DNA of 64,000 nucleotides from Escherichia coli (GTDB lineage Bacteria > Pseudomonadota > Gammaproteobacteria > Enterobacterales > Enterobacteriaceae). Each line of letters starts with the position of its first letter. The first letter of the stretch is position 1. The position numbers and the translations under genes were made by a program. The stretch lies in NCBI RefSeq assembly GCF_003334255.1, contig NZ_QOWU01000016.1, one strand, 5' to 3'. The notes beneath the pieces are model-generated. The model was given only the letters and a program-made list of their open reading frames with translations, was not told the DNA's origin and searched no databases. Positions 38,629 through 53,470 of this stretch are shown here, piece by piece.

Positions 38629-38800
38629 TGCCGGATGGCGCTGCACGCAGAGGCACAGCGCCACCGGGTATACAGATTGTTGACAAAGTGCGCTTTGTTT
38701 ATGCCGGATGCGGCGTTAACGCCTTATCCGGCCTACAAAATCGTGCAAATTCAATACATTGCAGAATTTTCGTAGGCCTGATAAGCGGAGCGCATCAGGC
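38629..38800. repeat. REP/BIME palindromic repeat cluster (dppB-dppA intergenic)
   Basis: Three REP-like units, e.g. atgccggatgcggcgttaacgccttatccggcctac and gtaggcctgataagcggagcgcatcaggc. Confidence 0.8.
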
Positions 38801-41011: not shown

Positions 41012-41097
41012 GTAGGTCGAATAAGGCGGTCGCGCCGCATCCGACAATGGCCGGCACATTTGCCTGATGCGACGCTGACGCGTCTTATCAGGCCTAC
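41012..41097. repeat. REP/BIME palindromic repeat pair
   Basis: gtaggtcgaataaggcggtcgcgccgcatccgac and tgcctgatgcgacgctgacgcgtcttatcaggcctac. Confidence 0.75.
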
Positions 41098-41152
41098 GTC
41101 GAGTCGAACCTCCCTGCCCCCGGAGGTTCTCATCCTCATGAGCTGCAGATGC

Positions 41153-41182
41153 AAAAAAGCCTGCTCGTTGAGCAGGCTTTTC
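41153..41182 (-). terminator. duplicate copy of the proK intrinsic terminator
   Basis: Hairpin agcctgctc-gttg-agcaggct flanked by an A6 run (T6 on the minus strand). Confidence 0.55.
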
Positions 41183-41320
41183 GAATTTGGTCGGTGATAG
41201 AGGATTACTCGCCACTTCGTGGCTCGCCCTGCGGGCCGTTGCTGGCGCAACGTTCTCTCGCTTCGCTCGAGTCGAACCTCCCTGCCCCCGGAGGTTCTCA
41301 TCCTCATGAGCTGCAGATGC

Positions 41321-41350
41321 AAAAAAGCCTGCTCGTTGAGCAGGCTTTTC
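41321..41350 (-). terminator. proK rho-independent terminator
   Basis: Same hairpin immediately 3' of the tRNA on the minus strand, followed by a T-run. Confidence 0.7.
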
Positions 41351-41355
41351 GAATT

Positions 41356-41432
<77 letters not shown>

Positions 41433-52217: not shown

Positions 52218-52508
52218 ATGGAATATAAAGATCCAATGCATGAGCTGTTGAGCAGCCTGGAACAGATTGTTTTTAAAGATGAAACGCAGAAAATTACCCT
52301 GACGCACAGAACAACGTCCTGTACCGAAATTGAGCAGTTACGAAAAGGGACAGGATTAAAAATCGATGATTTCGCCCGGGTTTTGGGCGTATCAGTCGCC
52401 ATGGTAAAGGAATGGGAATCCAGACGCGTGAAGCCTTCAAGTGCCGAACTAAAATTGATGCGTTTGATTCAAGCCAACCCGGCATTAAGTAAGCAGTTGA
52501 TGGAATAG
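52218..52508 (+). CDS. yiaG: XRE-family HTH transcriptional regulator (96 aa)
   Basis: 96-aa ORF with HTH (GLKIDDFARVLGVSVAMVKEWE). Confidence 0.85.
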   Translation: MEYKDPMHELLSSLEQIVFKDETQKITLTHRTTSCTEIEQLRKGTGLKIDDFARVLGVSVAMVKEWESRRVKPSSAELKLMRLIQANPALSKQLME

Positions 52509-52589
52509 ACTTTTATCCACTTTATTGCTGTTTACGGTCCTGATGACAGGACCGTTTTCCAACCGATTAATCATAAATATGAAAAATAA

Positions 52590-52788
52590 TTGTTGCATCA
52601 CCCGCCAATGCGTGGCTTAATGCACATCAACGGTTTGACGTACAGACCATTAAAGCAGTGTAGTAAGGCAAGTCCCTTCAAGAGTTATCGTTGATACCCC
52701 TCGTAGTGCACATTCCTTTAACGCTTCAAAATCTGTAAAGCACGCCATATCGCCGAAAGGCACACTTAATTATTAAAGGTAATACACT
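52590..52788 (+). promoter_or_regulatory. cspA promoter (AT-rich UP element, -35 ttgcat) and 159-nt 5' UTR with cold box
   Basis: Leader acggtttgacgtacagaccattaaagc starts about 159 nt upstream of ATG; cold box tgacgtacaga at 52636-52646. Confidence 0.75.
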
Positions 52789-53001
52789 ATGTCCGGTAAA
52801 ATGACTGGTATCGTAAAATGGTTCAACGCTGACAAAGGCTTCGGCTTCATCACTCCTGACGATGGCTCTAAAGATGTGTTCGTACACTTCTCTGCTATCC
52901 AGAACGATGGTTACAAATCTCTGGACGAAGGTCAGAAAGTGTCCTTCACCATCGAAAGCGGCGCTAAAGGCCCGGCAGCTGGTAACGTAACCAGCCTGTA
53001 A
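52789..53001 (+). CDS. cspA: major cold shock protein CspA (70 aa)
   Basis: [70 protein letters not shown]; RNP1/RNP2 motifs. Confidence 0.97.
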
Positions 53002-53028
53002 TCTCTGCTTAAAAGCACAGAATCTAAG

Positions 53029-53057
53029 ATCCCTGCCATTTGGCGGGGATTTTTTTA
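53029..53057 (+). terminator. cspA rho-independent terminator
   Basis: atccctgcc-attt-ggcggggat hairpin followed by a T7 run. Confidence 0.75.
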
Positions 53058-53187
53058 TTTGTTTTCAGGAAATAAATAATCGATCGCGTAATAAAATCTA
53101 TTATTATTTTTGTGAAGAATAAATTTGGGTGCAATGAGAATGCGCAACGCCGTAAGTAAGGCGGGAATAATTTCCCGCCGAAGACTC

Positions 53188-53340
53188 TTACTCTTTCAAT
53201 TTGCAGGCTAAAAACGCCGCCAGCTCATAACTCTCCTGTTTAATATGCAATTCACACAGTGAATCTCTTATCATCCAGGTGAAAAATAAAAGCGTGAAAC
53301 AAATCACTATTAAAGAAAGTAATCTATATTTCTGCGGCAT
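53188..53340 (-). CDS. hokA: Hok-family type I toxin HokA (50 aa)
   Basis: MPQKYRLLSLIVICFTLLFFTWMIRDSLCELHIKQESYELAAFLACKLKE from ATG 53340-53338. Confidence 0.85.
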   Translation of the reverse strand: MPQKYRLLSLIVICFTLLFFTWMIRDSLCELHIKQESYELAAFLACKLKE

Positions 53341-53442
53341 TCCCAGCCTCCTGTGTTGATTTCCAACGAGTGATTTATAGTCAGGTGGGGCTTTTCTCTG
53401 TCTGCCTTTCGGTGAATACCTGAGACAAACAGTCTCAAGCAC
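53188..53442 (-). CDS. mokA: mok-like overlapping reading frame (84 codons) in frame with hokA
   Basis: ORF starting MLETVCLRYSPKGRQRKAPPDYKSLVGNQHRRLG and ending at the hokA stop; functional status not determinable from sequence. Confidence 0.4.
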   Translation of the reverse strand: MLETVCLRYSPKGRQRKAPPDYKSLVGNQHRRLGMPQKYRLLSLIVICFTLLFFTWMIRDSLCELHIKQESYELAAFLACKLKE

Positions 53443-53470
53443 CCGTGGCTATTCTAGCTTAATAAGTTTG
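53400..53470 (+). ncRNA. sokA: expected Sok-type antisense RNA (sokA) opposite the mokA translation initiation region; boundaries not resolved
   Basis: Inferred from hok/sok locus architecture only; no unambiguous promoter or terminator identified by eye. Confidence 0.3.

Follow-up and report, generated by a model that had tools for sequence, protein, structure and literature searches.

Identity of the locus

Do positions 52590 to 53057 of the window (the whole stretch of DNA that was analysed, 64,000 nucleotides in length, to which all coordinates below refer) hold a canonical cspA cold-shock unit with a long structured leader, as proposed in an original prediction made from the sequence alone? 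With a probability of about 97%, the locus is cspA, a chromosomal gene of Escherichia coli which forms a monocistronic unit and encodes the major cold-shock RNA chaperone CspA. None of the observations speaks against this identification. The segment extending from the yiaG stop codon to hokA (52509-53187, 679 bp) displays 100% identity to E. coli K-12 MG1655, and 2132 bp including cspA are identical to NC_000913.3, where the open reading frame is annotated as cspA (b3556). The 679-bp unit is found as a single occurrence in 5423 of the 5426 complete E. coli genomes. Compared to K-12 cspA (b3556) and to the RNA family RF01766, no difference was observed within the promoter, leader, cold box, Shine-Dalgarno sequence, reading frame or terminator. 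Only the wider context differs from MG1655, by the absence of an IS150 element beyond hokA and by 18 substitutions elsewhere in the 64 kb.

All the elements named in the original prediction are present at the positions given there, and alignment of the leader to the characterised cspA untranslated region (b3556, MG1655) returned full identity, not the substantial divergence that would speak against a cspA unit. The cold inducibility and high expression also ascribed to this unit are properties that we infer from the literature on the identical K-12 sequence. The unit found here is already known and fully characterised; nothing in it is new, and no open question is made more testable by this copy of the locus. 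Its value is that of a positive control, in which one of the best-studied stress genes of bacteria, together with its regulatory anatomy, was correctly recognised from raw sequence.

Leader, cold box and RNA family

The 5' untranslated leader occupies positions 52630-52788 of the plus strand, begins with ACGGTTTGACGTACAGA (52630-52646) and is identical to that of K-12. Counted from 52630 to the ATG at 52789 it measures 159 nt, the length originally predicted. The RNA family match starts one base earlier, at 52629, and gives a leader of 160 nt; both figures are in use, 159 nt with the cold box in the Inouye numbering (PMC6719143) and 160 nt in the work of the Giuliodori/Gualerzi laboratory (PMC6386945). 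An unusually long 5' leader of approximately 145-160 nt containing a cold box is part of the definition of such genes (PMC6719143), and the 159 nt at 52630-52788 do enclose this element. The cold box TGACGTACAGA, 11 nt in length and spanning +7 to +17 of the leader (52636-52646, plus strand), had been placed at the leader start and was located there within ACGGTTTGACGTACAGA; the window contains no second exact copy. Both the Rfam consensus and the ViennaRNA folds include it in a 6-bp hairpin where 52632-52637 are paired to 52643-52648, and a 6-bp stem-loop containing the cold box has been described at 37 C (PMC9411577).

The Shine-Dalgarno sequence AAGG (52776-52779, plus strand) is located 9 nt 5' of the ATG and pairs, in the Rfam consensus, with a CCUU at model positions 87-90. 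Further 5', the segment GCCGAAAGGCACA (+123 to +135; 52752-52764, plus strand) includes a small GCC-GAAA-GGC hairpin which is part of the same consensus. We take GCCGAAAGGCACA to be the 'upstream box' of the cspA leader, which Yamanaka et al. 1999 reportedly placed at 123-135.

The entire mRNA is covered by the Rfam family RF01766 'cspA thermoregulator'. The match extends from 52629 to 53056 on the plus strand, is ungapped over model positions 1-428 of 428 and reaches 500.8 bits (E=1.9e-142), the gathering threshold of the family being 78 bits. The 124 consensus base pairs of the model are all standard pairs in the sequence of the window (124/124).

A near copy of the cold box with one mismatch, TGACGCACAGA, is present inside yiaG (52300-52310, plus strand), 330 bp upstream of the real one. 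Matches with at most one mismatch amount to 3 in the window where 0.6 would be expected, and at least 3 were obtained in 2 of 100 shuffles. The copy in yiaG is probably due to chance.

Promoter and boundaries of the unit

The promoter architecture is complete, comprising both hexamers at a 17-bp spacing, a TGn motif and an AT-rich tract 5' of the -35. The -35 hexamer TTGCAT predicted for this unit was read from the sequence at 52593-52598 of the plus strand and agrees with TTGACA at 3 of 6 positions. It is followed, after a spacer of 17 bp, by the extended -10 TGG + CTTAAT (52613-52621, plus strand), whose hexamer shares 4 of 6 positions with the consensus. To judge from the title of Phadtare and Severinov 2005, cited in PMC2613000, the extended -10 is critical for the cspA promoter. 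Directly 5' of the -35 lies the AT-rich UP-element region (52559-52592, plus strand), which is identical to that of K-12; in the 22 bp at 52571-52592 the A+T content amounts to 86%, compared to 48.5% for the whole window. An AT-rich UP element is required according to Mitta et al. 1997, as this work is quoted in PMC6386945 and PMC4956666. The UP element of the original prediction does exist, but its delimitation was too narrow: the element is situated almost wholly 5' of the proposed start at 52590 and was clipped by it.

Taken together, the cspA hexamers agree with the consensus for sigma-70 at no more than 7 of 12 positions. A simple consensus scan of the window did not report the cspA promoter. 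Since the hexamers are weak with respect to the consensus, the promoter is credible only by virtue of its identity with the studied cspA promoter. Such weakness is also what could be put forward in order to argue that the signals listed here are chance matches in AT-rich intergenic DNA lying beside a short reading frame: the agreement is limited to 7 of 12 positions, the promoter-like sites returned by the consensus scan are fewer than in shuffled sequences (2 vs 3.8), and cold-box matches with one mismatch exist elsewhere in the window. This explanation can nevertheless be dismissed in view of the RF01766 match at E=1.9e-142, of the 100% identity to a characterised gene kept in 5423 genomes, and of the protein families and solved structures matched by the product, which are described below.

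A hairpin consisting of ACGGTCCTG-ATGA-CAGGACCGT and followed by TTTT (52534-52558, plus strand; -15.5 kcal/mol) is located just past the yiaG stop codon. It is likely the yiaG terminator, and it delimits the cspA unit on the upstream side; a T run of only 4 T explains why it is missing from the consensus terminator scan. At the opposite end, the terminator scan returned an intrinsic terminator with a 12-bp stem, a 4-nt loop and 7 T (53026-53059, plus strand), which is also the last helix of RF01766. The hairpin proper (53026-53053) contains 12 pairs, 6 of them G-C, and has a predicted energy of -19.0 kcal/mol; the description of this terminator as strong and intrinsic was accurate, given the 12-bp stem, T run and energy. 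With the hairpin at 52534-52558 (-15.5 kcal/mol) upstream and the -19 kcal/mol terminator downstream, it is reasonable to call the unit self-contained.

Coding sequence and the 'cspE' label

The coding sequence (52789-53001, plus strand) consists of 70 codons followed by TAA, terminates in NVTSL and corresponds to b3556 cspA in NC_000913.3. Translation and family matches confirm the 70-residue CspA frame that had been read at this position. The RNA-binding motifs RNP1 (KGFGFI) and RNP2 (VFVHF) occupy residues 16-21 and 30-34 of CspA, respectively. The NCBIfam model for CspA, NF007679, gives 172.2 bits for a cut-off of 130, and the solved structures 2L15 (E=6e-44, residues 1-70) and 1MJC (E=3e-43) of the PDB, both entitled 'cold shock protein CspA', are matched as well. 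The reported 'downstream box' ATGACTGGTATCGTA, positioned from the sequence, covers codons 5-9 (52801-52815, plus strand), and codons 1-9 are identical to those of K-12 cspA. The downstream box is described as lying within the first 9 codons, its mechanism being disputed by papers cited in the same source (PMC6386945).

In most of the genomes listed, the protein record WP_000014594.1 bears the name 'cspE: transcription antiterminator/RNA stability regulator CspE'. Taken literally, this name would make the gene another member of the csp family, the constitutive antiterminator cspE and not the cold-inducible cspA, and the protein does score above the CspE equivalog cut-off (124 vs 120 bits). We give this identification next to no chance. 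The score obtained with the CspA model is far higher (172.2 bits), the gene has the position of b3556 cspA in K-12, between yiaG and hokA/glyS, and the long leader and cold box match the cspA RNA family. The RefSeq label, an annotation artefact of overlapping model cut-offs, arises because the protein scores above the threshold of the CspA model and also above that of the CspE model. The use of the 'cspE' name for CspA in most complete E. coli genomes by the NCBI automatic annotation can mislead.

The identification of the gene as cspA also holds with regard to the remaining members of the family. The cspE and cspC genes are constitutive and have the cold-shock-domain fold in common with CspA, but cspE is devoid of the long leader, cold box and downstream box (PMC6719143) and is found at another genomic location. 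The cspB, cspG and cspI genes of E. coli do share with cspA long leaders (160, 155 and 145 nt, respectively), a cold box and a downstream box (PMC6719143). They occupy other places on the chromosome, however, and are absent from the window, where the only exact cold box is that at 52636; the protein encoded here reaches 128.6 bits with the CspG model, below its cut-off of 144.

Conservation among orthologues

Genome contigs were scanned with a degenerate 14-base leader pattern (AAGNNNNNTCNNNGATACCNNTCG), which yielded 120 loci, 117 of them chance occurrences in unrelated phyla. The three true orthologues recovered in this way belong to E. albertii, Citrobacter werkmanii and one divergent Escherichia, and reach 447-491 bits with RF01766. 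Identity to these orthologues amounts to 90.7-98.8% for the leader and 97-99.5% for the coding sequence, compared to 79-93.5% for the yiaG coding sequence and 59-87% for the upstream intergenic DNA. The conservation of the leader fits with purifying selection acting on it, as far as the comparison of sequences can tell. Variation affects 16 of the 124 consensus pairs when the three orthologues (89-98% identity) are considered together with the window, which represents too few differences for a covariation analysis. Compensatory double changes were absent among those orthologues, and several single changes break a pair. As the four sequences are nearly identical, these pair counts carry no weight.

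Published mechanism and proposed explanation

Two conformers of the cspA mRNA have been described. One of them, the cold form, is confined to temperatures below 20 C; it binds the 30S subunit approximately 2.5-fold better and is translated in vitro without cold-shock factors. In the other, the 37 C form, the Shine-Dalgarno sequence and AUG are partially masked, and its translation in the cold requires CspA, whose effect is on the progression of ribosomes and not on 30S binding (PMC9947658). Probing in vivo at 10 C indicated that the cold box is then paired to a distal segment and that the start region is looser (summarised in PMC9411577). At 37 C the half-life of the mRNA is 12 s; in the cold it exceeds 20 min (PMC4956666).

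The mechanism proposed for the cspA unit of the window can be briefly outlined as follows. Sigma-70 RNA polymerase would initiate transcription at A52630 (or A52629), the weakness of the hexamers being compensated by the AT-rich UP element and the extended -10, and would produce a 428-nt mRNA with a 159/160-nt leader. At 37 C this mRNA would disappear within seconds, its cold box being held in the small 5' hairpin and its Shine-Dalgarno sequence and start codon being partly occluded. Below approximately 20 C, an alternative fold would pair the cold box to a distal segment and leave the initiation region looser. [quoted passage not shown] The accumulated protein would then bind single-stranded RNA and aid ribosomes on structured mRNAs, an assistance that would extend to its own mRNA in the less favourable conformation. 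Transcription would stop at the strong intrinsic terminator, 130 bp short of hokA, which is convergent with cspA.

Such a mechanism bears some resemblance to that of the ROSE, fourU and rpoH thermometers, where translation initiation is likewise controlled by a temperature-dependent mRNA structure. In these thermometers, a hairpin covering the Shine-Dalgarno sequence melts as temperature rises, unlike the situation in cspA, whose mRNA adopts two alternative global folds, is favoured in the cold and owes a large component of its regulation to mRNA stability.

Folding at different temperatures

The comparison of predicted structures at 10 C and 37 C, which had been suggested as a check of the leader, gave results that depend on how it is performed. 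The minimum-energy fold of the full-length RNA does change, between 15 and 20 C. The fold predicted at 10-15 C shares 81% of the RF01766 pairs, compared to 56% for that predicted at 20-37 C; the Rfam consensus resembles the 10-15 C fold, yet the Shine-Dalgarno sequence and AUG are paired in this consensus. The extent of the change is not particular to this sequence: the minimum-energy folds at 10 C and 37 C are separated by a base-pair distance of 79, whereas shuffled sequences have a mean of 87 and reach at least the same value in 51% of cases.

In a 187-nt fragment from the 5' end, the cold-box hairpin has an ensemble probability of 0.10 at 10 C and of 0.94 at 37 C, while the unpaired fraction of the Shine-Dalgarno sequence falls from 0.31 to 0.03, a direction in agreement with the in vivo structures summarised in PMC9411577. 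In the full-length RNA, the Shine-Dalgarno sequence and AUG are predicted to be paired at every temperature. The published direction is recovered in the 187-nt fragment, but full-length folding leaves both elements unchanged. The predicted switch is absent at lengths of 175, 200, 220, 300 and 428 nt, and partial at 240 nt. In overall stability, the whole mRNA surpasses its dinucleotide shuffles (z = -3.0 at 37 C and -3.1 at 10 C); the leader alone does not (z = -0.2 to -0.7).

Since the switch depends on the length of the folded RNA and is of the size observed in shuffles, folding was not counted for or against a thermosensor. In the models, these results would fit with a choice between nearly equal folds that is determined kinetically or co-transcriptionally. 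Two-temperature equilibrium RNA folding is an unreliable test for a thermosensor of the cspA type.

The full-length predictions also have a bearing on the relative importance of the steps proposed above. The gene being the same, its induction could proceed mainly by stabilisation of the mRNA against RNase together with CspA-assisted elongation, the unmasking of the ribosome binding site having a minor role. The longer half-life in the cold (more than 20 min, compared to 12 s) argues in this direction, as do the help given by CspA to the closed conformer, through ribosome progression and not 30S binding, and the full-length folds in which the Shine-Dalgarno sequence and AUG remain paired at all temperatures. 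The cold conformer, however, binds 30S approximately 2.5-fold better in vitro and is translated well without cold-shock factors; both effects have been documented, and one does not preclude the other. A predominance of stability is considered rather unlikely, and the explanation preferred for this locus remains the one where the cold fold would act on 30S binding and half-life alike.

The hokA neighbour

The original prediction placed the unit directly next to a hokA toxin locus, and this neighbourhood is real: hokA is located on the opposite strand, 130 bp past the cspA terminator. Its reading frame of 50 codons (53188-53340, minus strand), convergent with cspA, attains 129.7 bits with the NCBIfam HokA equivalog (cut-off 89). 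The upstream control region mokA/sokA (53338-53444, minus strand) has suffered a 45-bp deletion between 53371 and 53372. The Rfam sok match to this region contains internal gaps and amounts to 62.1 bits (gathering threshold 59) vs 124 bits for an intact locus. The missing 45 bp correspond to a hairpin-containing segment (TAAGAGGCTAACCTTATGGTGTTCAGGCATAGGGTAGCCTCACTT) carried by intact hokA/mokA/sokA loci. With an intact HokA frame and a damaged mok/sok control region, this is a degenerate hokA locus, like that of K-12 but without IS150. The exact junction between 53371 and 53372 was encountered in no complete E. coli genome. Similar deletions exist in 27 genomes, and the gaps in the two that were aligned measure 44 and 46 bp and do not share their end points, which suggests that the hairpin of the hokA region may have been lost recurrently.

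Between the two genes, and outside the cspA unit, lies ysaE (53140-53211, plus strand; RefSeq annotation b4793), a frame of 23 codons whose start is 82 nt away from the terminator of cspA and which has 24 nt in common with the 3' end of hokA, convergent to it. A consensus scan of the interval between the terminator and ysaE detected no plus-strand promoter. Expression of ysaE may depend on read-through from cspA. A more elaborate proposal, which we consider very doubtful, is that in the cold, when antiterminators of the CspA family are abundant, read-through of the cspA terminator would produce both ysaE mRNA and antisense RNA across the 3' end of hokA. If true, such read-through would couple cold shock to a remnant of the hokA toxin locus.

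The spacer between the cspA terminator and hokA (53058-53187) contains an IS1 family element in one genome (H1). In the divergent Escherichia (L117, 5458-5911), approximately 400 bp of extra DNA separate the cspA terminator from ysaE, and in Citrobacter werkmanii unrelated sequence is found where ysaE and hokA would be. The spacer seems to be an insertion hot spot.

The wider window

In MG1655, the window corresponds to positions 3667261-3732710; the two sequences differ by 18 substitutions, and the IS150 found after hokA in K-12 is absent from the window. The gene order around the unit is ghrB, yiaF, yiaG, cspA, ysaE, hokA, glyS. At position 28709 (K-12 3695969), codon 6 of bcsQ is TTG vs a premature TAG in K-12, so that bcsQ is intact here; judging from this codon, cellulose synthesis is probably intact. 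The possibility that the window originates from an engineered, IS-free K-12 derivative was considered and ruled out by the 18 substitutions, including the intact bcsQ codon 6. By the same sequence comparison, the window is from a close natural relative of K-12.

The product of yiaG (52218-52508, plus strand), the gene situated just 5' of cspA, gave sub-threshold matches to MqsA (43 vs 61.8 bits) and NadS. Possibly, YiaG is an orphan HTH regulator similar to an antitoxin. The window also contains members of further curated RNA families (32876-32941, 38737-38779, 41015-41432), namely rdlD, the antisense RNA of the ldrD toxin, as well as ES036, naRNA4, RtT RNA and the tRNA-Pro proK. A 108-bp direct repeat (41099-41206 and 41267-41374) is located beside proK.
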